Positions 1 to 64,000 of a stretch of 64,000 nt of DNA are shown piece after piece (positions within the stretch are counted from its first letter, which is position 1; each line of letters opens with the position of its first letter). The notes under the pieces were generated by a model. It saw only the letters and a list, made by a program, of their open reading frames with translations. It had not been told where the DNA came from and searched no databases. The DNA is taken from contig NC_057719.1 of the NCBI RefSeq assembly GCF_004010195.1, positions 25,320,809-25,384,808 of the forward strand, given 5' to 3'. Position numbers and translations under genes: made by a program. This DNA is from Chiloscyllium plagiosum. Its lineage: Eukaryota.

Positions 1-479
1 GAATAAGTTTTTAATTAATTTGTTTGAAGATGCTAAAAGGTAAAGTGAACACGGTTTATTTGGTCAGGAACTTGGATCTCCAACCCACTTGATTCCCAAT
101 GTGTTAGCAAATTAGCTTCCTGCCTCTGGGCCTTTTTCACTAGTGAATGTTTTGTGGGGAGAAGTTTGCAGTGGTGGATACTCACTCAAGCAGCAGATAG
201 ACTTAAGTCAATTAAACAGCCAATTGAAACCACTCTTTTGGTTCTGATAGCTTTATGGGATGCCTGCAGAGTTTGAAGCCTGGCTGATCAATGGATGCCA
301 TATCCTGGCAGCAAACCAAAGATCAGTGCTTTATTACTAATGTTAAATCTTCTCCCCCCCCCCCACTGAAATAACTCTACAGAGGTCAGTATCTCATCAC
401 CAAGTCACCCTTTCGTTACACAGAGTCCTTGACACTGATTCAAGCTCTGAGTGAACAGAATCTCTGACACTTCTGTTTT

Positions 480-1700
480 ATTATATATATTTTATTAAAA
501 CACTACAAAATACAGTTAATAAACAAAGCAGTTCACAAAAAAAATATACAGGGGAAAAGGCAACAAAGCCAAATGTCACTCTTCAACCAGTTTTCAGGGA
601 GAGGAGGACACACCTCAAATCTCACTTGTAAATCATTACAAAGATAACAACAATAACAGTCACAGACAAGACAGACAGTGCATAGAACACAGACCCAATA
701 TAGCTATAGAAAAGAAGACATTTGTCATCTGTCCACACCACACACAGATCAGATGCCTTGGCCCCAACCACCCTGCATACTAACCCAGACCATCCCCCCA
801 GGCCAACCATCAACCCTCCGGCTCCTGACTGCTCAATGTACTAACTAGCCCACTCTGACCTGCACTCAATTACAAAACCCACATACATTAATACAATTCT
901 TAAAATCCTCACAACAGTTTCCAGTACCAAGGCAGAGACCACACCTGAAGACAGAGTCTATTCCAACTAGCAGCAAATGGATACCCTGCAGTGCGCACCC
1001 AGGTGTTCAGTCTCGATGGAGGCCTGATCCATCCATAGAGAACCAAGCCCACTCACAGGAACACAGTACATTGTGAAGCTGCAGTTAACTCACAGGAGTT
1101 TGGTCCACTCCTGAAGGCAGAGTCCACACCACACACACTCAGGTGTTCAGTCTCCACAGAGGCCAGGTCCATTCACAGGAACATGGTACATTGTAAACGC
1201 ACAGTTAATTCACTTGGGGGATAGTCCACTCCTGGATGCAAAGTCCACTTCAGTATGCAGCAATTGCTCACCTCCCAGCACGCACACAGGTGTTCAGTCT
1301 TTACAGAGGCCTAACCATACAGGAACAGCACATCTGGAAAGATGTATTTTCTCACGAGGGCTCAATCCAAACACAAATGAGAAAACATTAAAAAAAAAAC
1401 CTGAGTGCAAGAGCTAAGCCCTGCCACAAAATCAACATACTCTTGAGAAAGGACCAACACACAGCCAGTGAAACAGCAGTTCCCCAATAAGAAATGAGTT
1501 ACGCCAGTAACACATTGACTGACTGACTTTTTTAAACTGGCTGATTTAAACAAAGAGGAATGCCAGTTAACAAACTGGTGATATGATTCAGCCAGTTCAG
1601 AAATCATGTTTTCCCCAAAACAAACAGAAACCAACAGTAGCAGTATGCATTTGATGTGGGCAGCCAGCTCAGAGTCAGTTCCCTCACTGAGGCAAATGGA
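480..1700 (-). mobile_element. Non-coding poly(A)-tailed retroposon 'X', copy 1, inserted in the Gypsy LTR
   Basis: AATAAA plus A-rich tail at the low-coordinate end; internal subrepeats (CAGGTGTTCAGTCT at about 1000, 1140, 1288); homologous to 1867-3036. Confidence 0.6.
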
Positions 1701-1866
1701 GTGTCATTGACACTGATCCAGCTCTGAGAACAGAACCTCTGACACTCCTATTTATTGTTTTTCCCCTGTCACCAAATCACCCTTTATTTACATGTGCACA
1801 TAGACTATCTCTGACCAGCCCAGCTCCAAGCCAATCCCTAGAATGATGAGACTGAATCCCCTGTGT

Positions 1867-3036
1867 ATTTTATTAAACATTACAGTTTATAAACAATTAA
1901 CATTAACAGCTGTATAGAGCAATCAAGGACAAGGAGGCTCAAATCCCACTTTCAGTTTCACAAACGTAACAGTAACAAATACATACAAGACATTCCAATT
2001 AGATAAGAAACAGTGCATAGAATACAGACATCCCCCCTCCCCATCCCCCACCTGAGCAACTCAGCAAGCCACCTGTCCCTCTCACCTTCCAGCCACTCTA
2101 AGGCAGCCTGCCCCATGCCCCATCTGGCTCTCTCCCACCCTAACAACTTGCAGCCACCTCAAGGACAGCCCACCCCGGTATCTGCCAGGGGGTGACAGCA
2201 GTGAGGATGGTCTACCTACCTTTCAGCGCTCTGTCTGTCCCTACATACCATCTGGCTCTCGCCCACCCTGACCTGCCATCCAGCCTGTGAACTGCTTTGA
2301 CACACCTGGCCACCTTGAAGATAGCCCATTCCCTTCCCTGAGATGACGGCGTGCAGAGCCCATTACCATAAACAGTTCTCTTCAAAATGCAGAGTCCATT
2401 CCAGTGTGCAGAATGCATTGTCAGAGATAGAGTGCATTGATGAAGGCTGCAAATACAGACACACAGGTGTTCCTTCTCCATAGAGGCCTGGTTTGTCCAC
2501 AGAAAACCAGGCCTACTCACAAGAACACAGTACATTGGGAGTGAACCACACCTTTACAAATTCCAAGACACAGCAATTGGTCAGCTCCCATCACACACAG
2601 GTGTTCAGTCTTTACAGAGGCCTACCCACAGGAACAGCTCATCTGGAAAGAGGTATTTTCTAACAAGGGCACAGTCCAAACACCAAAAAAGTGAAAACAC
2701 ATTCAAAAAACAAAGTAAACCAAAATGCAAGGGCTAAACCCGCCAGAAAATTAGCATAGTCCTCTTCTCAAAATAAAAAACAAAAGACTAACACACAGGC
2801 TGTAACAACAGTTCCCTAATGAGGGCTGAATTATACCTGAAACACATTGACTGTGTAAATCAGGCAGTTTAGAAATCAGTCCTCAATAAAGAAGGAATAC
2901 CAGTTAACAACCCTGGCTTTGTAAACCAGCCAGTTTAGAAATCCGGTTCTCCCAAAAAAGCAGAAACCAACAGCAGCAGTAACACACTGACTGTGACCCA
3001 GCCAGCGTAGAGTCAGTCCCCTCCCTGACACAAAAT
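1867..3036 (-). mobile_element. Non-coding poly(A)-tailed retroposon 'X', copy 2
   Basis: Same 5' junction and 3' end as copy 1; 2593-3036 aligns clearly with 1283-1700; middle region differs. Confidence 0.6.
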
Positions 3037-3111
3037 AGAGAGTCCTGGACACTGATTCAACTCCCTTAGAGCCAGCTCTCAGATTGAACAGAACCTCTGA
3101 CACTCCTGTTT

Positions 3112-3583
3112 ATTTTAGATTTTTGTTTCTATTTCCCACATGCTACTGCCTAACAGTATTTATTTTACCCCACCACCCATGTTGTGTGTGTGCAGATGTA
3201 GGGCACTGTGAAGACCAACAAATGCATACATCCTTACTTGTATTCCACCACCAGGAAGAAAGGAAATGCCCAAGTGGCCAGTGACTAGTAGTGCCCTTCT
3301 CAACAAATGGCAATGCTGCGTGATCAAAAAGTGAAGGGGGGGGCGGGGTGGATTAAATCAAAATAGAGTTGGACGGGGAAATAAGACACTCCACTCCCTA
3401 CGGTGCCCACCTCTCCCTGAACAGCTCAAGGGTGTTGGTAGATACTGCATGCTCCTTCTCCAGAGACACCCAGGCTCTGATATAACCGCGGAAGAGGGGT
3501 AGGCAGTCAGCCCTAACGACCCCCTCCATGGCCCGCTGCCTGGTCCTGTTTATGGCCAGTTTGGCCAGGCCCAGGAGCAGACA
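3112..3583 (-). mobile_element. Tx1-clade (L1 group) LINE, 3' fragment: ORF2 C-terminus plus 3' UTR and tail
   Basis: LLLGLAKLAINRTRQRAMEG...LFRGYIRAWVSLEKEHAVSTNTLELFRERWAP is typical of Tx1 ORF2 ends; AATAAA and A-rich tail follow. Confidence 0.8.
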
Positions 3584-3826
3584 CACACTTGTTTTTTTTT
3601 AATCAACTCACCCTTGAGTTACATGTGTAGAATCCTTAGCACTGATCCAGTTCCCTCAGAGCCAGCTCTCAGAGTGAAAAGGATGTCTGTCACCCCTGTT
3701 TATCATTTTTTTTCTCTTTCTGTCTTCACACTGATCCAACTCCCTCAGAGCCAGCTCTCAGGGTGAACAGGATGTCTGACTTTTTTTTCTCTTTTTCTCA
3801 GAGTGACAGGATTCTGACACTCCTGT

Positions 3827-4050
3827 TTTTTTTTTGTTTTTCTTCTTTTCCCCTCACACCACCAGCTAACTGCGGTAGCACTTATATTTTCCCCAGCATC
3901 CATGTTGTGTGTGTGCAAGTGTGGGGCACAGTGAAAGACTCAAGGTGTACAAATATTTATTCAATTTCCATTACCGGGAAGAACTAAAACACCCGAGTGA
4001 CCAGTGACAAGCAGTGCCCTTCACAAAGGGCAATGCTGCGTGATCAGACC
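3827..4050 (-). mobile_element. Second Tx1 3' UTR fragment
   Basis: Diverged homolog of 3125-3330; A-rich tail joins the same LTR site. Confidence 0.75.
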
Positions 4051-4084
4051 ATTGGATGAGAGATGATATGGAGCTGTCCTTATA

Positions 4085-4340
4085 TGATGAATACCTCTCA
4101 ACTTTCCCATCTATCCGCTCCACCACACTCTCCGACCTATCACCTTCTCCCCCATCTTCATCTATAATTGCATTCTCAGCTACCATCCCACCCCCCAGGC
4201 CGAACACCTTCCCATTTATCTCTCAGCCCCTCGGCCCACAAGCATCATTCCTAATGAAGGGCTTATGCCTGAAACATCGATTCTCCTGTTCCTCAGATGC
4301 TGCCTGGTCTGCTGTGCTTTTCCAGCACCGCACTGTCAAC
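4085..4340 (+). mobile_element. Penelope-like element 3' tail with degenerate hammerhead (CTAATGA..GAAAC)
   Basis: CCTAATGAAGGGCTTATGCCTGAAACATCGATTCTCCTG...GATGCTGCCTG tail shared with 16250, 40740 and 55600. Confidence 0.8.
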
Positions 4341-7300
4341 TTTAGGAAATACTCAGATTCTCCATTAGTAAATGATAACCCATTATCTGTGACCAATGCT
4401 TTCAAGAGTCCATGTATTGCAAAAGCTGAACGCAGTTTTTCTATCATGGCTCCCGTGTTTGAGGAATGAATGCGATACATGTCTACCCACTTTGAGGGGC
4501 ATCCACAATGAGCCCATGAAACGATTTGCAAAGTTGTCGTGTAATCCGGCTGTTCTCAAGATTAGGGGGAGCTGCTGGTGATAGTTTTGCCCTTGTTGGC
4601 ACTCTGGACACTACCCGCCAATGTGGCTATGTCTGCATCTAATCCTGACCAGACATGAAGTCTCCCCAACTCTTCATTTTGAAAACGCTTGGATGACCCT
4701 GGTGGAGTTCACACAGTATCTGGTGGTGACCTTTGCTTGGGACAATCACTCTTGCTCCCCCATAATAATGGTTGTGATGGCTCTTTTGGTTTCCCCCATC
4801 ACCACTGCCAGCTGTTTCGTCAGGATGAGATCTTTCTGCATCCAAAGTCTGAAATTGTCAGCAGCGATTGGAAGTGTGTCCAGGAAATTTAAAACTATTA
4901 CGGACTCTTCCAGTGGTGGTACCACTGGTGGTGTATCGGCCAGTGGGAGGCAGCTCAATGCACCCTCGTTCACTACTTGCCATCCTGGACTGTGTTCCAA
5001 CTTGCAATTATACCCAGTTAGTATTAGAGCCCACTGCTGAATTCAAATTAAAGCAATTGCTGGCACTGCTTTGTTGTCTTTAAGGAGCCCTACCAGGGGT
5101 TATTACAAATTTACATCAGTAAAGGTATTGGTGGAACTTTCTGACTTCAAATATTACAGCCAAACCTTCCATCTCTAACTGGGCGTATTTACACTCTGCA
5201 TGAGCCAAAGTCCTGGATGCATATGCTATTTGGCATTCCTCCCTACTAGGCCAGCTATGAGCTAATACTATCCTGATGCCATATGGGGACATAGTGCATG
5301 TCAATACTAGATCTCACTTGGGATCTTAGTGTGTCAGCGCATTTAAAGGATGATAGTCATTTTTTCACTTCCCTGAAAGCTATGGCTTGGCTACGCAACC
5401 ATTTCCAAGGCTGACCCTTGTTTAGGAGTTGATGGAAAGGAGCCAGGATGGAACCAGGTTATGTATGACCTTACTGTAATAATCCACCAGCTCAAGGAAA
5501 GTCCTGAGCTCCGGTACAGACTTGGGAGCTGGGGCACCTTTGATCATCATCACTTTATCTTCCAATGGGTGTAACCCTGTTGACTCTGCAGCCCAAGTAG
5601 GTCTCTGGGGTACCTTGAACACATACCTTTTCCTTTCTAAGGCATACACCTGCCTGGGAGAAACATCTCAGCATAAAGTCCAAATTCTCTAAGTGCTCAT
5701 CATTGGCCTTCCCTGCTATTAGCACATCATCTATATAAATAGCGGCCTGGGGTAGACATTGTAAAATATTCTCCATCGTCCATTGAAAACTTGCACAAGC
5801 TGATGATACCCAATTGGCAATCTTGTATATTGGTACAAACCCTTATCGGTATTTAATTGTAGCGTAATTCTGGAAATTCTCATCTAACTGTAATTGCAGG
5901 TACATGTGACTCATGTCCAGTTTCATGAATGACATCCCTCCCTAAAAAAAAAGCTGATTTTGTGTATAGGTCCTCTCTGTGAGGGATTGGGTCTTTATCC
6001 AGTTGTACAAAACTGTTTACCATTTGCTTAAAATCCCCACAAAGCCAAATAGGCCCCTCACGCTTCACCATCGGTACCATTGGTGCTGCCCATTCTGCAA
6101 ACTGGATTGGTTTGATGATTTCTTCACTCTCCAGCCTTCTGATTTCTGCCTCTACTTAAGCAAATGGCCCTGGGCGGGCTTTGCAGAATCATGGAATTAC
6201 TTCCTGGTCAACAGGTAAGGTTACCTTGGCTCCTTTGATAGTCCCTAGACTTTCCTGAAAAGCTGCCTGATATTTAATTAGGACTTCACTCAGGCAGCCA
6301 TTTTCTGAACGAGAAATGTTGAGCTAATCAAGGTGAATCTTTCTCAACTAACTTCGCTCCATCAGGCTTGGGTCTGAACCTTTTAGTACAATCAACGGTT
6401 ACTGAACCAGCTGCTGTTCATAAGAGATGGGAACCAAAGTTGTACCCTTAATCTGTAAAGGTACCCCAGTATAGGTTCTCAGTCTAGCAAAGTCTTGCAC
6501 AAACTTAAGGGTTGGAGTCCAGAATGAATTTTGTTTAAGAACAGAATTGCAATCAATGAAACAGTTGCAATGGTATTGACCTTCAATAGAACTGGGTGAC
6601 CATTTAACCAGACGTTTATTTCGATTGGTTCTGATTTGGATGTTGCTCAGTAATTTAACTGATCCAAACCAGATGTAGGTGGGTGTGCCCTCTCCTAGAT
6701 ACTGGCCTCTGCATTGTCTTAGTCAATTTAGGTCGAGTGAAACTCAGTCGGACTGGCAAGGGTATTCACTTCCATCAGAATACCCTGCAACTCATATGCT
6801 ACATTTGCCGGATTTTCCAATAACAAAGCTAATTCTTGTTTGAACTTCAGTTGGACTTCACCTAGTGGGTGCTTTTGAATGGTTACATTATTAATCCCAC
6901 ATACAAATGGTCTCTCAGCATTTCATTTAGGGTTAAACTAAAGTCACATGCCTCTGCCAGTCATCTTAACAAAATCAAAAAATCAAAATTCCTGTACGAT
7001 TCCATGGTTCTCGAATTGCCAAGTAATCTGATAGCCTCTCAGAATTTGAGGAGGCTTGGGGTCGTAATATTCCTGAACAAAATCTGTCAACTCTTGAAAG
7101 GTTTTTGTATCTTGTGCCTTCGGGAAAGATAGACTCTGGAAAAGTTGTGGGATTATCATTAGCTGTCAGGAGAATTACTCGTTGCTTTTCATCTGCCCCA
7201 CTCATTAAAAATAACACACTCTTTCCACATACTGGGCCCAGTCTTTGATGACAGGGTCGAAAAAGGCAAACTTTCAAAATACTGGCATGATGTCAGAAAT

Positions 7301-9039
7301 GGTTACTCCAACTCAAAGACGACCATTATGAGCAAATTTCTTCAGGAGGGTGCTTTTCTCTCATCACCACTGAAGTAACTCCAGAGAGGCCAGTATCCTG
7401 TCACCAAGTCACCCTTCATTTAGATAGAGAGAGTCCTTGAGACTGATCCAGCTTTCTCAGAGCTGCCTCTCAGAATGAACAGCATATCTGACACTCCAGC
7501 CTTTTTTTCTTTTTTTTCCCCCTTGATTTACGTGTCCCAAGTAGGTAGGCTCTGACCAGGCAACTCAAAGCCAGTGACAGTCCTGCTCTTATCAGTCAGC
7601 TAGGGCTCCTTGATTGGGGCTGTTAATCAGTTCCAGTCAGGGAACTCATTCTGAGGTCCACCTGGCTGATCTCATCACAATCCATACATCCACAAACCAC
7701 TGGCCACAGGTAGCCCCGCATAAGGGCGGTCTGTATCGGTGGCTACTTTTTTATTTTGAATGCATTTCTGAAGGAGCCTTCATCTTGAGATGCCCTCACT
7801 TTCTCTTCCCTTCATCAACAATTCCTTACTGACAATTTTGGGTGGGAATCTTTCCTTGATGGAAGTTTCCTTTTGGCCCTCAGAAGCCCACTGCAGTTCT
7901 AATTTGGAGAGTAACCTCCCCTTTTTTATCTACTATTTAGTACAAAATCTGGACATGGAAGTGCTCCTGATGTCAGAGTCTGAACCCAAAGACAAAAATT
8001 CAGCCAACTGTCTTTGAATTGCTGCAATGCTTAATTGGTTCAACCAATCAATAATCTTTATCAATCATACTCTCCAGACCTCAATTCCAGAAATTACCTT
8101 AATTTCAGCAGTAAAGCTCCTGAATTAAAACTGGCTGCAAATTAAAACATTCATTGTACAGGGCCTTTCACAAGCTCAAAGTATGTCAAAGAATTTTACA
8201 GCTATTTTAGCACTTTTGAAATATATTTACTGTTGTAGGAATAAATTGTTTTATCCTAAAATTTGTACCTGGTTCTCTTGCTTGTGCAGGCAAGATTGGA
8301 ATCAGATATGCTTGACTAATCCAGTAATTACTACATGGGTAATTCTGCAAACCACACACCAGGCTCCTGAGAAGACAAAATTTCACATTTATTGTTAGTA
8401 TTTAATATCTTTATTAAGAGGCACAAGTGAATAATCTTGCAAGTCACATAACTTGAAGAATCAGCAAAATGAGCTGAGCAATGGCCAAAGTCCCGGAGCA
8501 AGAATATACTGTGTGGTGTATCTTTGAACCACTATTCAATGTGTGATTGCAGGAGGATACAGAATATATGAAAGCAGAGGGTTGAAAATGAGGGGTAAAA
8601 CTATAAGAATACCTCCTCCACAATGGTCCATTCCTCAAATTGATGGCATTATCAAATCAAGAAAAAGAAGTTACAGGCTGTTCCAATCCCTGGCTTTAAA
8701 TATAATGCCGATAAATAGAAAGGATAAGTATATCAAAAAAGCTGAAGATAAAACCAAAATTATTTAACTTCAATATTTTATTTCAAACTTTGGATTCATT
8801 TGGGTCCCATTCATTTATAAATTGCATTGACGTATTATTCCAATTTTAATTGTAACATGGTCGTATAGCATGTATTTCAGTTGCCCTAAGGATCATTCTT
8901 TGCAATGTAAAGGACCTTTTTATATCTCTTTTGTATTCATCCGTGTAAACTAATCTTGAGTGTCAGTCACTGGGCATGACTGGACGACAACCAGTTTGGG
9001 GTGATGGGATGCTTTGTTTGCCAACTTACTCTTCAAAGA

Positions 9040-10749: not shown

Positions 10750-11600
10750 TAGGTGTCCTTTCTAATCCCATCTTTCCACTTACGGCCCACAGCCCTGCAG
10801 TTTACAGTACCCAAGGTGCAAATCCAGTTATTTTTTTAAAAACTGTTTAGGGTCTCTACCTCCACCACCAACTCGGGCAGTTTATTCCAGACACCCACCA
10901 TCCTCTGCACAAAAAAGTTTTTCCTTATGACCCCTCTAATCTTTATGCCACTTAGCTTGAATCTATGAACCCTGTTTTTGTTTTGGCATCTCTGCCAAGG
11001 GAAACAGTTTCCTCCAGTCTACTCTATTTCTACCCCTCACAATGTTGTACTTGTTGGTCTTTAGCCTTCCCTGTTCCAAGGAAAACACACCATCCTCTGC
11101 ACAAAAAAGTTTTTCCTTATGACCCCTCTAATCTTTATGCCACTTAGCTTGAATCTATGAACCCTGTTTTTGTTTTGGCACTCTCTGCCAAGGGAAACAG
11201 TTTCCTCCAGTCTACTCTATTTCTACCCCTCACAATGTTGTATTTGTTGGTCTTTAGCCTTCCCTGTTCCAAGGAAAACAACATTAACCTCTCTAATTTC
11301 TCCTCATAGCTACAATTAGCTGGGCCTGGCAAAAATCTAGTAAATCTCTGCACTCTCCCAAGTCCTCACTGTAATATAGTTACCAGAACTGTACACAATA
11401 CTTCAGTTGTAGACTCACCGGTACCTTATACAGTTTCATCATTATAACCCTGCTTTTGTATTCTAATACTCTGCCAATGAAGGAGAATATTCCATATGCT
11501 TTGCAACCTGATCTAACTGTTCTGTTACATTTAAGAAACAGTGTAGCTTGCATGCCAAGGTCTCTCACTTCATCTACTTCTATCACTTTATCCCATTTAT
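10750..11600 (-). mobile_element. CR1 LINE 3' fragment with an internal tandem duplication
   Basis: ORF remnants KAYGIFSFIGRVLEYKSR..LKYCVQFW and QRFTRFLPG..YEEKLERL.LFSLEQGRL. Confidence 0.85.
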
Positions 11601-20010: not shown

Positions 20011-20473
20011 CTGTGCTTCAGAAGCAAGTGTGCCTGAAAATTGTGAAATTACAATCTTTGAATATACCCATGAATGAATCACATGCATGTATACCTATTT
20101 GATGAATAAAATTCCCATTATTGTTCAGTGCCTTATGAAAAACATAATTGATATGAACTCATTACCATTTACAAAGCTGGAATTGTATCAAGCCATGGTT
20201 TATGAAAATCTCAATTATCAATGTGTAAGCTCTATTTCAGGCCTATGTGCTTTCTGGAAACTATGGGGGTACTTAGATTTTCAATACTTATCCCATGTCA
20301 TCACACTATTACTCAAAAATGCATACAAGAAAAATACCTCTGTTGAATTAACCTTGAATGGTATTCAGTTCTGTGGTTTGTGCTGATTTCAGTCAGGTTA
20401 GTGACATTAGGTAATACAGTTGGCCTTGATGATAATGGTTGCTGTTTGGATCACTGTCCTGTTCAGTTGGCTA

Positions 20474-20704
20474 CAAAGATAGAGATTGCTGGAAAAGCTT
20501 CAGCAGCTCGGGTAGCATCTGTGGAGAGAAATCAGAGCTAACGTTTCAGGTCTAGTGACCCTTCCTCAGAACTCTACATTCAGAGTTGGACCTGAAATAT
20601 TACATCTGATTTCTCTCCACAGATGTTGCCAGATCTGCTGAGCTTTTCCATCAATCTCTATTTTTGTTCCTCATTTACAGCATCTTCAGTTCTTTCAGTT
20701 TTTA
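20474..20704. mobile_element. Penelope-like fold-back insertion inside a SINE head
   Basis: Inverted arms; perfect 13-bp TSD GTTCAGTTGGCTA (20461-20473 / 20705-20717). Confidence 0.85.
20533..20575 (-). ncRNA. Minimal type I hammerhead ribozyme motif, sense to the CHGA pre-mRNA
   Basis: AGAGTT-CTGAGGA-A-GGGTC-ACTA-GACCT-GAAAC-GTT-AGCTCT: stem I, core, stem II and palindromic minimal stem III. Confidence 0.65.
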
Positions 20705-22118
20705 GTTCAGTTGGCTAGATGGCTGAGTAAGATGCAGATTTATACTAACAGCCCTGTTAAAATCATCATAATGCCTGTGGTAGTTTATGCACACCGGCCT
20801 CCTTATCCTACATCACCCTTGCAGTATAGTACAATCTGTACATAACTAATTATATCTCTCTAATGAAGATAGTTGGATTATGGCTATTTAACTTTCCTTA
20901 TGTTAAAGACAATGTACAAATGTAAGTTGTTATTGATAAATATTACAGCTTAGGAGGCCACCAACAAGTGACCTCCATTATCAGTTTCATCTGAGAACTA
21001 ACGAAAATCTTTGGTGCCTCCATATAGTATTCATCCCATGATTCCATTTGTCTTTATCAGGTCTTTATTAGTCTTCCATAACTTATGACTCGTTTCGCTT
21101 GAACAAAATTTACTAATCTCAGTAATAATTTATCTTCTAGTCCACTGGTAATGTTGTGATCTTTGGTGAAAGATAAGAATTTCACATTGTTTCAACTTAA
21201 CATGGAGGGTCTTGGATATTAAGAATCAGTGACAAGAGGAAGGGTTCAGTAAGCCTCCACAGGTAAACTCAAATAAATTGAGAAGATTAACACTAACGCA
21301 TTGGTTGTGTTTATGCTCTACTTCCTCCTCTAAACTACAACACTGTTCTAACTCTCTGATCACCCATACCTTCACTCTTTGGTATTCAATACTGTAACTT
21401 TTGACTTCTTACACTTATCACTGGCTGCTTAACCCTGCTGCACTAAAAAGCTGAATAAATCTTGACAGTGTCATGTCAACCCCATGCAATACTCTGGATT
21501 ATCTACTGGTCATAGTAAAATATCTGAGGACACTTATTTCTTGTAATACCTTTCCCTAACACACTTTGACAGTCCCACTCTTTTTATGAAACACCAGTCC
21601 CCATTTTGGGAATGAATTATAGAGATCACATCTGCAATCCATTATAGACTCATGATTTTCATTAATCAGAGATTACTAAATTCACAACCAGGAACAATGT
21701 CAAATGAGCCCTGCTAATAAAGATCTGGACAGATGGAAAGGTTTTGCATTGGATCAGAATGTAGGCGGAAGTGGGTACTGTAGCTGCTGGAGATTAGAGT
21801 CAAGATTAGAGTGGTGCTGGAAAAGCACAGCAAGTCAGGCAGCTACTAGATCACAATATGTCATGCTCCAAAGCTTCAAAGATAGGCCTTGCCTCATTTT
21901 TCTGACCTTGATGACCTGACTGCTCCCAAGTACAGGTGCTCGTCATTTACAATGTGTTGAAAAATCTACAGAAGTGCATCCCTCCCATTCCCAAAGGAAG
22001 TCTTTGGACTCTGGCTTACAAAGCAAACCTTGCCAGAGATAACAGCACCTTAGCAGTTCGCCAGCATTCAGAAGTACCACAGTAGATCAATTTAAAGGAA
22101 ACATAAAATGAAACAAAC

Positions 22119-23053
22119 CTCATTTTTCCTATTGGCACTCCCTTCTTCTTCTTTCTCCTTCTTATTTTCATCTTCAATTCTTTTTCGCACTGGGTATGAT
22201 GAAATGGTTTCCTTCCCTTTTTGTCTGATATCTTCCCCAGAGTGAGATCTTCTGTTGCCCCATGAGTGTTGGAAATGACTCGGTTCATTGTGTGCTTTGG
22301 CACTTCCAGATCCTGCAAGTTTACCGTTTCCCTCGAAGAGATCTTGTTTTTCATCACTTGTTTCTCCATGGTTTTGTTCTGGGCTCAGTTCCCCTGTCAT
22401 CTTCCACTTTTTTCTCTCCTGCAGCTCTTCTTTCGATGATCCATAATTTTCATCACTGATGTTTGAGTCTTCATCCTCTTCTCTACCTTCATCCTCTGAA
22501 TTCTGGTGGATCATGGTATTGTCATTGGACCTTATTTCTTCCTCAGAGGATGTCCCATCCATCTTCATGTCCGAAGGCTCACTGTTTTCAGGTTGGTTTC
22601 TGCTTTCTTCCATGTTTCTTCCATCCCCTCCATCATCTTCTGAAGGCTCTTCATCCTTACTGTCACTGTAATCACTGTGGTTTTCCACCTCATCCTCTTC
22701 ATTGCTCTCTTTGGTTTGGTCTTCATCCATTTCCTCTTCCTGGGTATCCCCATCTTCATTTGGCTCACTTTCCTCTGGACTATGCTCCTCACTTTGGCTC
22801 TGATCCTGGGACTGTTCTACAGTAGACTCAATTTCAGAGTTGCCATGCTTCCTTGGCTCCTGTCTTTTTATGTCTTCCTTTTCTGGGGCCATATTGCTGC
22901 TAAATGGAGTTGTATCCTTCATGTTCAGAAAGCTGTGCCTGCTTACATTTGGTGGTGTCTCCTCTTTGCTGTCCTGAAACTCTTTGTCCTTCATTCTGAA
23001 TATCTCACCAGATGATCCTTGCTGTTTCTCTGTAGGGATCTCATGTAATTTAC
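22119..23053 (-). CDS. CHGA: Chromogranin A coding exon 6 (large acidic exon, ends EEEGSANRKNE)
   Basis: 935 nt open frame containing most of ORF 22092..22994; CTGCAG acceptor and GAG|GTTTGT donor; Glu/Ser/Asp-rich; EEEGSANR is a CgA hallmark. Confidence 0.93.
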
Positions 23054-23556
23054 CTGCAGAACAATCAATATGATAGATGAACTTTCACGAAGTCAATTGG
23101 ACTAATTGCTTTTGCTCAGTTGCTATGATAACACTCAAGGACAAACATATCTTGTCCAAAAACAAAAATTCCGACGGGGATCAAAAACAGACAGAAGCTG
23201 CTGGTATGTCATTTCATGAGTAATGTTCAATTAACACTACTTAAACTATATTTAAATGATGACAGAAAGCAATTTATGTAAAATATCTGTAAATAGATAG
23301 ATCTGACTAATCAATATCAACACTCCTTCTATGCAATGTATTCTATTTTAAACAGTCTCTGTTATACTCAGTAGTCTGATATGGTAAATTAGAAATGCTG
23401 TAACATGCAATTAGATTCTGGCAATGCATCACAAATATAATTTAGCCAATTAAAGTACTTTAAGCAAAACGATGCTCTGCAACTGAATAATTATCTGGAT
23501 TACATTGACAGTCTGCAATGTACACCAGGGATTTGGTGGTTTACCTCAACACTAAC

Positions 23557-27379: not shown

Positions 27380-27620
27380 AACTGAAAAAACTGTGGATGC
27401 TGTAAATCAGAAATGACAATAGAAATTGCTGGGAAAGCTCAGGCAGTCTGGTAGCATCTGTGAAGAGAAATCAGAGTTAATATTTTAGGTCCAGTGACCT
27501 TTTCTAGGAACTCAGAATTCTGAGGAAGGATCGCTGGACTTGAAATATTAGCTCTGATTTCTGTCCACAGATGCTGCCAGACCTGCTGAGCTTTTCCAGC
27601 AATTTCTGTTGTTGTTTCTG
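27380..27620. mobile_element. Penelope-like fold-back insertion (same family as 20474)
   Basis: Inverted arms around a degenerate CTGAGGAAGG..GAAAT core. Confidence 0.8.
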
Positions 27621-28959
27621 AGTTACTAGAGATCCTGTCAATAGTAGAATCTTACCCCAGGAAGGAAGGAAAAAGGAAGAAGCCAGAGAGAATTTTAAAA
27701 TAAGTTTCTGGATAAAACATTCATTCTGTTTTAAAACAATCTTTTATTTTATCTGTTGCTTATACTAATGCAGTATTTATAACTGCTGATTAAGCAGCAA
27801 AGTAGTCAAATGTCAGCAGTTTTTACAAAGTTGGGGCAGTAGCAGAAACTGGTTCCAATGGACATACTTATTCAGTTGGAACCTTGAATATTGTGCAAAA
27901 TGCAAAATACAGCAGCTGCCTGAAACCTGAACCATAACATGCTGGAAATTTTCAACAGTTTAAGCACTGGTCAGAGTCAAGGACCATATCTAGAACAGTT
28001 TCTCCATTCTCCCCAATCTGACAATTCACTAATAGAGTTTGACCTAGTCATGGAAAAGTAGAAACACAATTGAGTTTATGTTTGATTATCAGGGTGCCAT
28101 TTCTAATTTTGCAAAGGATTAGGAATTGGATCCATGGTGAAATAAGTATTAGCTAATGATATTAACAGTTTTTTCAAAAGTTGAGACCTCTGCAGTAAGA
28201 CATGAATTCAGCAGATAGGATGTCAGGAATGTGAACTGTGTATGTCATCACTCAAACACAACTATACTTGGCCTGCAGAGACCAGATATGTGCCTTTCGT
28301 TGGCTACTCAAAATCTTAGTAACTAACCTTGTAGTTAAAATGTATTAATACTCATTCTCGATATTACCGAAGTGGGTGACACTGAAGTTCGTTGCAAGCA
28401 GCAGGTCAACTGACATCCAAGCAGGCACACTGATAACTACTGAACATGTGAGATATGGACAATGAGTTGCAATAGAATTAAAAACAATAGAAACCAGATG
28501 CCAGAATAAATAAAATAAGAAAGGATTAATTTGTAACCATTAGTAAAATTGACGTCAGTTCAAATGGGTTGGAATTTTCCACATGCATTAAGAATGAGGG
28601 AACAATTTTGGAAACAATAACGAATGGAAGCAAAAATATAAACTGGAACAACTACAGTTGAAAACCAATATCATATAGAAAAAAAAATACAGATCATGTT
28701 TGAAAATATATCTCATAATCCAGAGACTACGGTATCATTGATTATTTTTCAGGCTAATTGCTTGCTTTTCTGCAAAATTGCAGGATAAACTTGTGAAATG
28801 TCTGCACTTCCAGATGGTTATGTGATATCACTGCCTCAATATAGTAATCTTGCATAAAAAACACATGGAGGCAGTCAAAATGCCTGGTTCTTTCAAGAGC
28901 TGAACAATAACAAAGACTTGCTACAAAAGGAACACTTGCTTCAAAATGGTTGGTGAGAA

Positions 28960-49796: not shown

Positions 49797-50027
49797 TGAA
49801 ATAACTGCACATGGGCTAGAATGCTGTCACTCAGTCACCATTTATTTACATGTGCACAGTACATGGGCTCTGACCAGCTAACTTAGAACCACTCCCTAGA
49901 CTGTGTAGACCTTCTGAAGCCTGTTTATATCTGTCAGCCAAGGCTCTCTAATTAGCCCAGGTTAACAACCCCAATCCAGGATCTTATAGTCAATGTGATC
50001 CACCTGGCAATGATTCCAATCACTACA
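49797..50027 (-). mobile_element. Uninterrupted solo LTR related to the Gypsy at 367-7688
   Basis: TGAAATAACT...CAATCACTACA; minus-strand ATATAAA and AATAAA; aligns with 7371-7688 and 1765-1866. No clear TSD. Confidence 0.8.
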
Positions 50028-50241
50028 TCAACAATTTTGAGAAATCTAGACAATTTACATGCACTCTCTTATTTATTTACTAGCAAAAGCAGATGCTTAA
50101 AAACATTCTTTCTTTTGCAATATAACTCTGACCTCCTGACCTAAAGTCAATCTTTAGGACTGTCAGCCAGTCTTTCAGTGCGGTGCACCTGTGTGGTCTG
50201 GAACCTACATATCCTAAAACACAGAGCCCTGCTGTTCGTAG

Positions 50242-55540: not shown

Positions 55541-55759
55541 GAAATCAAGATTAGAATGGTGCTGGAAATGCACAGCAGGTCAGACAGCATTCGAGGAGCA
55601 GGAAATTCAACGTTTTGGGCAGCAGCCCTTCATCAGGAATGGCTCCTGTCCGAAACGTCGATTTTCCTGCTCCTCGGATGCTGCCTGACCTGCTGTGCGT
55701 TTCCAGCACCATTCTAATCTTGACTGTAATCTCCAGCATCTGCAGTCCTCACTTTCGCC
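55541..55759. mobile_element. Penelope-like fold-back insertion inside a SINE
   Basis: Inverted arms; TSD CTCTTAATTC (55531-55540 / 55760-55769); minus-strand hammerhead with GAAA mutated to AAAA. Confidence 0.88.
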
Positions 55760-58680: not shown

Positions 58681-58998
58681 GGTTTGTGAAGGTTTGTAGC
58701 TCAGGTTGAGGTTTAGGGTGTAGATTTGCTCGTTGAGCTGCAGGTTTGATATCCAGACGTTTCATTACCTGGCTAGGTAACATCATCAGTGGCGACCTCC
58801 AAGTGAAGCGAAGCTGTTGTCTCCTGCTTTCTATTTATATCTTTCTCCTGGATGGGATTCCTGGGGTTTGTGGTGATGTCATTTCCTGGAACAACAGCTT
58901 CGCTTCACTTGGAGGTCGCCACTGATGATGTTACCTAGCCAGGTAATGAAACGTCTGGATATCAAACCTACAGCTCAGCGAGCAAACCTACACCCTAA
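58681..58998. mobile_element. Young Penelope-like fold-back with two intact hammerhead motifs
   Basis: Arms of about 110 bp (58712-58820 / 58890-58999), nearly identical; 20-bp TSD (18/20) at 58661-58680 / 58999-59018. Confidence 0.9.
58919..58958 (+). ncRNA. Minimal hammerhead ribozyme motif (identical inverted copy at 58753-58792)
   Basis: CCA-CTGATGA-T-GTTACCT-AGCC-AGGTAAT-GAAAC-GTC-TGG. Confidence 0.75.
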
Positions 58999-59744
58999 AT
59001 CTGAGATCATTCTTGTAAACATCCTCTGGACCCCCTCCAAGGCCAACTCATCCTTCCTTACAAAAGGAGTCCAAAACTGCTCACAAATTCCAAATATGGT
59101 CAGACCAAAGCCTTATACAGCCTCAGCAGTACATTACTACTCTTGTATTCCAACTCTCTTAAAATGAATGCTAACATTTCATTTGCCTTCCTGACTGCCA
59201 ACTGAACCTGCATGTTAACCTTAACAGAATCGTGAACTGTGGACTCCTAAGTCCCTCTGTGCTTCAGATTTCCAGAGTCTTACCTGATTTAGAAAATAGC
59301 CTAAGCCTCTGTCTTCCTACCAAAGTGGATAACCTCACACTTCCACACATTGTATTCCATCTGCACTTCTTTGCCCACTCACCTAGCCTGTCCAAGTCTT
59401 TCTGCAGCCTTCCTGGTTTCTCAACACTACCTGTCCCGCCACCTATTTTATGTCATCTGCAAACTTAGCAACAATGCCCTCAGTTCCTTTGTTCAGATCA
59501 TTAATGTATACCATTAATAATTGTGGTCCCATCACTGACCCCTGTGAAACTCCGCTACTCACTGGCTACCATTCTGAAAAATACCCCTTTGTCCCTACTC
59601 TCTGCCAGTCAGCCAATCCTCTATCCAGCGCCATGGACTCTTACCTTATTTAGCATCTTACTTGTTTGATGGTTCTTCTCAACAGTGTACCTTGTGTTGT
59701 CCCAGTTGTTGAAGTAGAACTTTACAATATGCGGCAAACCATGC

Positions 59745-61835: not shown

Positions 61836-62528
61836 AGCGTGTTTTGAGAAGATTTATAGCTCAAGTTGAGGTTCTGGATGTAGGTTTGCTCACTGAGCTG
61901 GAAGATTCATTTCCAGACGTTTTGTCACCCTACTAGGTAACATCTTCAGTGGGCCCCCAGGCGAAGTACTGTTGATAGTTCCATGTCATTTCATGTGGTG
62001 ACTTCATTTCCTTTTTCTCAGGGGGTGATAGATGTGGTCTAACTTGATGTGTATGTTGATGGAATTCCGATTGGAATGCCATTCCTCTAGAAGTTCTCAT
62101 GCATGTCTCTGTTTGGCTTGTCCTAGGATGGATGTTTTGTCCCATTTCAAGTGGTGTCCTTCCTTATCTGTATGTAAGGATACTAGTGAGACACCACTTT
62201 GACTAGGACAACACATCCATCCTAGGACAAGCCAGAGACACGTATGAGAATTCCTAGAAGCATGACATTCCAACCAGAACTCTATCAACAAACACATTGA
62301 GGTAGACCCCAACTACCACCCCTGAGAAAAAGAACAGGAAATGACATCACCATATGAAATGATGTCACACATGAAATGACATCACCAATCCAAAGAAAAC
62401 CAAATATATAAACAGAAAGCAGGAATTATTAACAGTGCTTCGCCCGGAGGCCCACTGAAGATGTCGCCTAGTAGGGTGACGAAATATCTGGAAATGAACC
62501 TTCCAGCTCAACAAGCAAACCTACATCC
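61836..62528. mobile_element. Penelope-like near-complete palindrome (693 bp) with endonuclease C-terminus and decayed hammerheads in both arms
   Basis: Perfect 12-bp TSD AGATTAGTCCCT (61824-61835 / 62529-62540); WDKTSILGQAKQRHA..EFLEA.HSNQNSINKHIE remnants. Confidence 0.9.
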
Positions 62529-64000
62529 AGATTAGTCCCTTTGAATTTCTTCAAGACTGTGTGGTATATTAAGCCCATTTCTTTCACTAACCATGTATAG
62601 TCCACAGTCCTGCATTCTCCAGAATGTTAATCTAACATTGTGACCCTACTAGGTTGATTTTCGCAGGTAATATTCTCACAGCCTCTGTTGGATGGGACCA
62701 TAGTCTTTCAAAGGATAACTCAGTGTCTGACTTAACCTTCTAGTCTTCAACTGTCTTCTGAATCAGTCATTTGGGCAACAAAGTAGCACTGTCAACTGTT
62801 ATAGAAGCTTAATTTGTTCATTATAATGATAAATGCTGAACATGTAATTATCTTGTGGTGCAGTGGTAGTGTCTGTCCCTTAAGGACAGAAGATCTGGGT
62901 TGCAGTCACATCTTTTCCAGAGGTGCCTGAACAGGTTATTTTGTTTTAATTATCGCCATTAGTTGGAGCTACAATGAAATAATTAGTAGTAATGTAATAA
63001 ATAAACAAATAGCTAAAATAAAAGATAATAATGCTTGATTCAGTGAAGGATAGTTGGAACTAGGCAGCTCTTACAAATAATTATTAATAATTTAATAGTA
63101 ATGGTATAGAAAGTATAACTGACCCATCAGTCTATTGGGGAGAATGGAAAAAAATAGCCAGTACTGCCCCTGATTAAACCATGCAAACAGCTAAAAATGG
63201 TGGCAGCATAACCCACAATTTTAATCTATTCTAGTGAAACCACTTTAAAAGATTACAGAGCCATTCTATTTGTGGTGTCAATCATGGATTAAGAAACACT
63301 ATCATTCATTTCTTTAATAATTCAAAACTAGGTTCAGATTAGAATTTACTGATGTGTAAACTCAAAGCCAAGTTTGATTCTAAAATCATGAAATCATGAA
63401 ATGGGGGAAAATCAACCGCTGTATAATTTACAAACCCCTTTACAGAACAGCGAATTTTCTTTGGGAGGGGAGTTCTTTTAAAACCAAATCAATTTAGCTC
63501 TACTTTTAGTGAGGGTTATGTACAATCTATTGCTATTTGAAAAGTATCTAACTCAACAGGGACATAATTAAGTTGATGGCTAGTTTTTGGAGTTATTTCA
63601 CATGTGGTACTTTTTGCACAGTACACACAATGGATATAATGTCAACACATTGTAACAGGGCACAGTGTTGCACCCATTTATGACAACACTTAGTATTGCT
63701 TGTTGCTGGCGAATACTCTTGAGATTAAGGATACAATTGAGGTACTCCCTTGTGAGAGCCCAGGGCATTGACTACCTGCATTAACTGACTACAGCTGTTC
63801 CCTTGTGAAACAAATAACTTTCTTGCATGGTCAGGTGATCCATCACACACAAAAAAATGGCTTCAATAATAAACAAAAGCCTATATTATGAAAAACTGCA
63901 CGCACATAGAAATAAGGAATGATTAATATCAACAGCAAACAGGAAATGAAGGCAGATCAGCAAAGAGTTGCTGTTCCTACAAATATTTTCTCCTCATTCT

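Follow-up and report, generated by a model that had tools for sequence, protein, structure and literature searches.

Known LINE systems with preferred targets

Two crocodilian Tx1 families, Tx1-8_Crp and Tx1-4_AMi, are described in the main text of Kojima 2015 (PMC4494074) as preferring LTR retrotransposons. These families, and the Tx1-Mar group with SINEU treated in the same text, are Tx1-clade LINEs that prefer another transposon, as the putative Tx1 LINE of the locus reported here would; the likeness extends to non-autonomous RNAs inserted at the same site in tandem, and to 5' additions that come from another subfamily than the unit behind them. Tx1-Mar and the crocodilian families differ from this locus in that excerpts of the text mention neither a TATA-box site nor poly(A)-tailed LTR pieces. 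Tandem arrays of R1 in Drosophila 28S genes grow by insertion into a 14-bp duplication, according to excerpts of Stage and Eickbush 2009 (PMC2718515). Growth at one site via a duplicated target, and target-derived RNA ends that pair with the target, are common to both cases, but the R1 spacer is fixed at 14 bp whereas the spacers here range from ~12 to 110 nt, some of them deriving from other LTR subtypes. 3' Transduction of downstream sequence has been reported for R7Ag and R1Bm, as stated in a section of PMC7265360. As in L1, R1Bm, and R7Ag transduction, read-through, a second poly(A), and a flank moved to a new site would be involved at our locus; unlike in those cases, the flank is the downstream half of the target with a poly(A) signal ~75-80 nt from the target start, and one or two units only point to such an event. 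HERV-W processed pseudogenes (Grandi 2016, PMC5016936, in part) are likewise LINE-made copies ending in R plus poly(A), with 5-15 bp duplications; they are long and dispersed at TT/AAAA sites, whereas the pieces here measure 55-105 nt and lie inside LTRs of their own family. Finally, truncated L1 insertions with very long duplications are reported from cultured cells in an excerpt of PMC2912911.

A literature search, which covered few subscription journals and left Repbase Reports outside its range, returned no account of LTR pieces with poly(A) tails stacked where the TATA box of an LTR is the target, of a Tx1 element targeting LTR TATA boxes, or of retroposed short LTR transcripts. The new detail is the presence of foreign LTR-end retrocopies among the stacked units; the targeting itself is already published for Tx1 relatives.

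Organization of the stack

The window is a stretch of 64,000 nucleotides from Chiloscyllium plagiosum (contig NC_057719.1). It contains a stack in which five tailed LTR pieces, all on the minus strand, start at or just after a single target site. This site lies in the TATA box of an LTR that is of Gypsy type and decayed. The stack also includes 3' ends of an L1/Tx1-group LINE and copies of a non-coding 1.2-kb element, here called X. At every unit boundary in the junction list, an A-rich run gives way to the motif found behind the TATA box of the intact LTR, and a target copy came after the A-rich run at 8/8 junctions examined. Read 5' to 3' on the minus strand, the locus comprises U3, a target copy, the 7574-7518 piece, the upstream R-U5, gag-pol as far as ~4340, an abundant unrelated repeat between the Gypsy internal part and 4046, a LINE 3' UTR, the LTR pieces r1, r2, and r3, the LINE at 3590-3113, head1, X1, the unit at 1763-1867, head2, X2, and the terminal R-U5. 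The features are as follows.

371..480, minus strand: terminal host LTR piece with target copy, R, and U5 as far as the LTR end; a contig bridges the junction
481..1696, minus strand: X2, an inserted non-coding element with its own AATAAA and a short A/T tail
1697..1754, minus strand: head2, the host-type LTR piece preceding X2; it has a ~16-nt deletion in common with the terminal LTR copy
1755..1762, minus strand: A-rich tail (7/8 A) of the 1763-1867 unit, after which comes the next target copy
1763..1867, minus strand: target copy, end of U3, and R, all from a foreign LTR of B type; the unit stops 20 nt past AATAAA
1868..3038, minus strand: X1, the second X copy, directly upstream of the 1763-1867 unit with almost no tail between
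3039..3112, minus strand: head1, the host-type LTR piece preceding X1; identity 50/55 to head2 and 53/58 to the terminal copy
3113..3590, minus strand: 5'-truncated L1/Tx1-group LINE with ORF2 C-terminus, 3' UTR, and A tail; a short target copy stands in front (~3596-3587)
3592..3702, minus strand: r3, target copy and R of an A-type LTR unlike the host heads, with a decayed hexamer and a 9-A tail from +13
3706..3781, minus strand: r2, a partial copy that stops short of the poly(A) signal, near the X-head ends, plus A tail
3782..3828, minus strand: r1, which repeats ~30 nt of the target and the beginning of R and carries an A tail
3829..4046, minus strand: another LINE 3' UTR piece, A-tailed, with 175/231 identity to the first LINE piece
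4340..7370, minus strand: internal region of the Gypsy-type element, decayed, with RT in one frame and RNase H in another, broken off in the integrase region
7371..7500, minus strand: upstream LTR with target copy, R, and U5; the LTR end is 7371, where contigs leave
7503..7574, minus strand: 5'-clipped B-type R piece with a 15-nt A tail within the upstream LTR and no LINE in front, a unit that the earlier note had missed
7575..7694, minus strand: U3, in which the TATA box has decayed, and a target copy of host type, ~15 nt long
49797..50030, minus strand: uninterrupted solo LTR of B type, the reference copy, 5' end approximate

An assembly artifact was rejected because the copies are diverged and contigs bridge two junction regions. 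The joints and loose ends considered are the best 15 of 3,454 and the best 18 of 6,653, respectively.

The unit at 1763-1867

The unit running from 1867 to 1763 begins at a post-TATA target copy on the minus strand, as the earlier note had proposed. It carries AATAAA at 1788-1783, and the A-rich tail that had been placed about 20 nt behind the hexamer starts exactly 20 nt on, at 1762-1755 (7/8 A), where intact LTRs go into U5. Of the 129 AATAAA sites in the window, 10 are followed by a run of 7 A in 8 that begins 10-30 nt downstream; this tail by itself is therefore modest evidence, and the weight lies in the repetition of the pattern across junctions.

The proposed kinship with the LTR subtype at 49797, rather than with the host LTR, was also borne out. 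Local alignment to the solo LTR gave z 20.4, compared with z ≤11.2 for eight other pieces, and the unit, the solo LTR, and the 7518-7574 piece formed a clade with 97% ultrafast bootstrap in a tree built from one locus, ten pieces of 32-132 nt with 10-28% within-type divergence, and a single B-type reference. When tested as a sister of the downstream host copy, neither the unit nor the 7518-7574 piece took that position in the tree. Long duplications of the host LTR are present in the stack, namely the X heads, but to regard the 1763-1867 unit as another such target-site duplication is scarcely credible given its grouping with the B-type LTR and its z of only 0.0 to head2 and 5.7 to the terminal copy. 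Since they group with the solo LTR, both B-type pieces (1763-1867 and 7518-7574) are, judged by sequence and with their type assigned by the tree, foreign retrocopies of RNAs that apparently ended at the LTR poly(A) site.

Other tailed LTR pieces

With tail borders chosen by eye, the A content of the remaining tails was 9/9 (3601-3702), 14/19 (3722-3781), 13/15 (3797-3828), and 14/15 (7518-7574). Three of the five tailed pieces end past the hexamer, at +20 (1763-1867), +13 (3601-3702), and +5 (7518-7574). The piece at 3601-3702, said to share the design of the 1763-1867 unit, is real and A-tailed, but its hexamer has decayed and its tail lies at +13 and not +20; it is probably a foreign retrocopy of an RNA that ended at the LTR poly(A) site. 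The shorter pieces reported at 3725-3780 and 3796-3826 likewise exist with A tails (3722-3781 and 3797-3828), but they end before the hexamer, r2 by 12-17 nt and r1 by ~48 nt, and the LTR poly(A) signal therefore cannot have made them.

The 7518-7574 piece is preceded by neither LINE nor X and stands alone behind U3 between two host-type target copies. It starts ~10 nt after the predicted transcription start, and its +5 tail possibly reflects slippage from one G run to another. In a DNA run, which may be the assembly's own sample, a contig of 272 nt spans the piece with 2 differences.

Pieces r1 and r2 look like long local target duplications in which the insert is reduced to its own A tail. 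This reading fits a three-site motif that r1-r3 have in common and that is absent from the heads, and it fits the end of r2, which falls within a few bases of the point where both X copies begin behind the heads; resting on three sites and on end positions, the sequence argues weakly for it. By identity, r2 is equally close to head1 and r3 (50/60 each), and r1 matches both at 29/32; tree support among the A-type pieces was 55% for r2 with r3 and 63% for head1 with the terminal copy. An r1-like duplication of ~33 nt appears in one row of contig joints from another run (joint 3697 to 3085). Alternatively, an A tail joined to the target spells AATAAA and could have ended an RNA ~30 nt later, which equals the length of r1. 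A new AATAAA made from an A tail and the kept half of the TATA box occurs at several junctions on the minus strand (1755, 3113, and 481).

The segment upstream of the predicted transcription start

At 23-27 nt from their beginning, the units contain an initiator-like motif, with its A at 1844 in the 1763-1867 unit, 3675 in r3, and 7476 in the upstream LTR. Counted from where the TATA box begins with its first T, the distance is ~29 nt, which is the textbook spacing from TATA box to start. By this spacing, each unit would begin within the last part of U3, ~25 nt before transcription is predicted to start. The units are consequently not copies of the R region as such, contrary to the earlier note, since their first ~25 nt precede that start; pure R units derived from the LTR promoter were rejected on the same ground. 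An RNA begun at the LTR promoter would lack these nucleotides, and the segment therefore tests origin, a host-type sequence being set against a foreign one brought by read-through.

Over the first 27 nt, the host copies head1, head2, and the terminal piece differ from one another at 1-4/27 positions, and r3 differs from them at 6-7/27. The 1763-1867 unit has 7/23 mismatches and a 4-nt gap to head2 over its first 23 nt, where the chance of at least 7 mismatches is 0.015-0.23 at a sister divergence of 12-22%. The same 23 nt fit neither type well, scoring 14 and 10 to the heads and 9 to the solo LTR. The mismatch leans toward an RNA initiated farther upstream than the LTR's own start, as in read-through.

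The LINE, element X, and the host LTR element

The LINE piece at 3113-3590 is identical at 43/62 positions to the C-terminus of a protein, P0066, that has RVT_1 and zf-RVT matches, both below the Pfam cut-off, and that lies among L1-type ORF2 clusters in the Atlas (score 0.96-0.97); a second relative, P0058, has zf-RVT at the cut-off. Judged through these two relatives, the LINE has an L1-type ORF2 with RT and a zinc-binding C-terminus. Only 66 ORF2 residues lie in the window, and the element is one that we take to be of the Tx1 clade. The best named match of its peptide is a Hemiscyllium ocellatum gene model; the peptide search gave 1 weak locus among 559 candidates, and 6,216 candidates yielded 1 protein and no full-length named LINE relative. 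Both LINE pieces in the stack (2/2) end at the target; the main text of PMC4494074 counts a LINE as target-specific when >20% of its copies are flanked by the target. Summed contig depth, which is not copy number, is ~14x higher over the LINE end than over the LTR, so many LINE copies may lie elsewhere.

Element X is present in two non-coding copies of ~1.2 kb (481-1754 and 1868-3112 with their heads, minus strand) that agree at 835/1068 aligned columns and have their own AATAAA at the 3' end. Both start at the same point behind their LTR-derived heads. Searched against Rfam, X gave no match at E 0.5, and a reading as a SINE sharing its tail with the LINE was dropped, the X 3' end scoring z 0.8 and -0.4 against the LINE 3' UTR. 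X is possibly a passenger transcribed from the LTR promoter. The heads are sister to the host LTR, with 83-91% identity over ungapped columns among head1, head2, and the terminal copy; the heads behave as long duplications in the duplication test, r1 and r2 doing so weakly. Because of the ~16-nt deletion in head2 and the terminal copy and the 53/58 identity of head1 to that copy, the heads are either long host duplications or homology-joined leaders, and for head2 either origin would serve.

The host element (7694-371, minus strand) is Gypsy-type, with RT followed by RNase H (RVT_1, E 9e-09; RT_RNaseH_2, E 6e-17) and an integrase recognized by eye only. Its LTR ends in CA at 7371, where 516 contigs depart into unrelated flanks, and intermediate LTR subtypes are present in the contigs. 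A gapped LTR motif scan of metagenome and viral contigs gave 0 matches. The downstream LTR has no U3, the element has no end of its integrase, and a large deletion precedes 4046; a remnant of U3 sought at 4047-4110 was not found (z 0.7 and -0.6). Alternatively, everything from 7590 to 480 could be one stack in a lone solo LTR, the Gypsy part, which itself begins at a target copy, being among the stacked units. The 4 bases that come next after the terminal LTR agree both with the beginning of the primer-binding region and with a motif just upstream of U3, and thus fit either layout.

RNA reads

RNA reads of 150 nt were aligned to 340-7780 at 80% likeness, which placed 4,230 of 12,955,460 reads from run X21 and 0 of 8,328,510 from run X22. 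No hot spot of read beginnings or ends was reported over 340-7780 in either run. In run X21, 304 reads that reached the LINE tail (3826) went on as a T run, their loose parts having a median length of 58, and the depth fell from 224.7 to 14.7 in the next bin beyond the tail and was low over R. The drop fits an RNA that ends at the LINE's own tail; it would look identical if oligo-dT had primed on the A run that the DNA encodes. Two joints, 3849-7502 (149 reads) and 1399-3849 (146 reads), were disregarded because they reflect matches of poly(A) or poly(T) runs, which raise the depth in bins containing such runs.

Origin of the LTR pieces

The reading that we favor, with a probability of about 0.65, is a LINE-targeted stack whose LTR pieces are a mixture of foreign retrocopies and local duplications. 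A target-preferring LINE of the L1/Tx1 group would nick the LTR family in the TATA box and copy polyadenylated RNAs into the nick. Each event would leave the downstream half of the LTR behind the new poly(A) and duplicate 12-70 nt of that half in front, and with a usable site remaining after each event the units could stack. The stacking is visible as structure, from which we infer the enzyme step. Some LTR pieces would be foreign retrocopies of RNAs ended at the LTR poly(A) site, and others, together with the host-type heads before X, would be local duplications in which the insert of 3797-3828 and of 3722-3781 is an A tail only. Features of LINE-made retrocopies are present, namely poly(A) tails, a target copy behind every tail, and a host-type copy before the 7518-7574 piece; the target copies at the junctions are decayed. 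The foreign LTR-end retrocopies at the LINE target are real, and known LINE behavior explains most of what is seen.

By a narrow margin, the likeliest source of the 1763-1867 unit is 3' transduction, with transcription of X continuing through the target, R, and poly(A) signal of a donor LTR. A foreign flank directly behind an element's 3' end, followed by a second poly(A), is seen in X1 with the unit and its tail, and does not occur at 7518-7574. The sister heads head1 and head2 (50/55) bracket X1 and the unit, the first 15-23 nt of which could equally be a decayed host duplication. We place transduction by X1 through a B-type donor LTR somewhat short of an even chance. A separately inserted RNA that ended at a B-type LTR and was clipped by pairing with the duplicated target is only slightly less likely; the element's genomic RNA, any read-through, or a short LTR transcript could have supplied it. 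Creation of this unit by DNA-level events or duplication is quite unlikely. The 7518-7574 piece shows LTR-ended RNAs landing with no carrier, although a heavily truncated transduction would look the same. Transduction as the sole route is not supported, because that piece stands alone and because an LTR-ended RNA inserted alone and clipped gives the same structure. For one or two units transduction is plausible, and it would add target copies and mix LTR subtypes as a by-product, not as the engine of array growth.

Taken to its full extent, the model of the earlier note would have LINE and X transcripts routinely read through and become polyadenylated in the LTR, with r1-r3 as successive transduced generations and with this process driving array growth. 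The placement of the 1763-1867 unit right behind X1, with almost no tail between and with sister heads (50/55) around the pair, agrees with such a process, as does the position of r3, which follows the LINE tail if r1 and r2 are set aside and whose pre-start segment differs from the host (6-7/27); the AATAAA spelled by A tail and target at some junctions could moreover cut an RNA ~30 nt on, at the length of r1. However, r2 fits neither signal, a carrier is absent at 7518-7574, units without R are also flanked by target copies, and the 304 reads of run X21 that leave on a T run at the LINE's own tail, with the fall in depth from 224.7 to 14.7, argue weakly for termination there. We therefore regard routine read-through as unlikely. 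What survives of the idea that the pieces are R plus poly(A) carried by read-through is the foreign character of the 1763-1867 unit and the tail at the expected site; r1, r2, the X heads, and the carrier-less 7518-7574 piece do not follow it. At the opposite extreme, all tailed pieces might be independent retrocopies of LTR-element RNAs, either genomic-RNA 3' ends or short transcripts of solo LTRs, mobilized in trans as in HERV-W processed pseudogenes and trimmed by homology at the target, with no read-through from LINE or X. The 7518-7574 piece, alone between host-type target copies and starting ~10 nt after the predicted start, is what this predicts, and both steps have precedents, since L1-made U3-R-poly(A) ends (part of PMC5016936) and target-derived RNA ends that pair with the target in R1 (part of PMC2718515) are documented. 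Transcripts running from start to poly(A) would nevertheless leave a host-type pre-start segment, which looks foreign in the 1763-1867 unit and r3, and r1 and r2 stop before the signal; we find this explanation possible but doubtful. Unequal recombination, gene conversion between LTR subtypes, and slippage in A runs, with the tails as expanded remnants, might be invoked for a locus that is old, repeat-rich, and marked by a large deletion, and for which contigs show intermediate LTR subtypes. Yet where poly(A) addition is expected, tails stand in place of U5, and a target copy comes next at 8/8 junctions, whereas recombination between LTRs predicts tail-less U3-R-U5 units, and DNA-level events as the general cause are very unlikely.

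Renewal of the target

Transduction had also been credited with rebuilding the downstream half of the target. This finds no support, in that no insertion removes the host half and that units lacking R also have target copies beside them, as at 3596-3587 before the LINE piece and on both sides of the 7574-7518 piece. The site can be renewed without transduction, since its downstream half stays in place throughout and is restored by ordinary duplications, as in R1 arrays; transduction of a unit would supply an extra site, but nothing in the locus indicates a need for it. It is conceivable, but rather unlikely, that a LINE aimed at the LTR TATA box routinely carries the target's downstream half to the next LTR, which would give self-similar arrays, swaps of R between LTR subfamilies genome-wide, and X-like passengers on the LTR promoter. 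If transduction were common, the system would be a natural case of a site-specific LINE that spreads its own target and makes chimeric LTRs, LTR dating and subfamily trees in sharks would be confounded, and hundreds of natural junctions would be at hand for the study of homology-based second-strand joining.

Other features of the window

An open frame of 330 codons at 22092-23084 on the minus strand is very acidic and serine-rich. It matched no Pfam family and had no usable Atlas match; its composition is reminiscent of a large acidic exon from a secreted protein of the mineralization type. A tandem duplication at 10896-11280 comprises two copies of 193 bp that are 98% identical. Long imperfect palindromes, formed by head-to-head repeat pieces, are found at 20473-20702, 27402-27626, 55545-55723, 58709-59002, and 61873-62531, and the repeat at 4246-4334 is related to that at 55545-55723.
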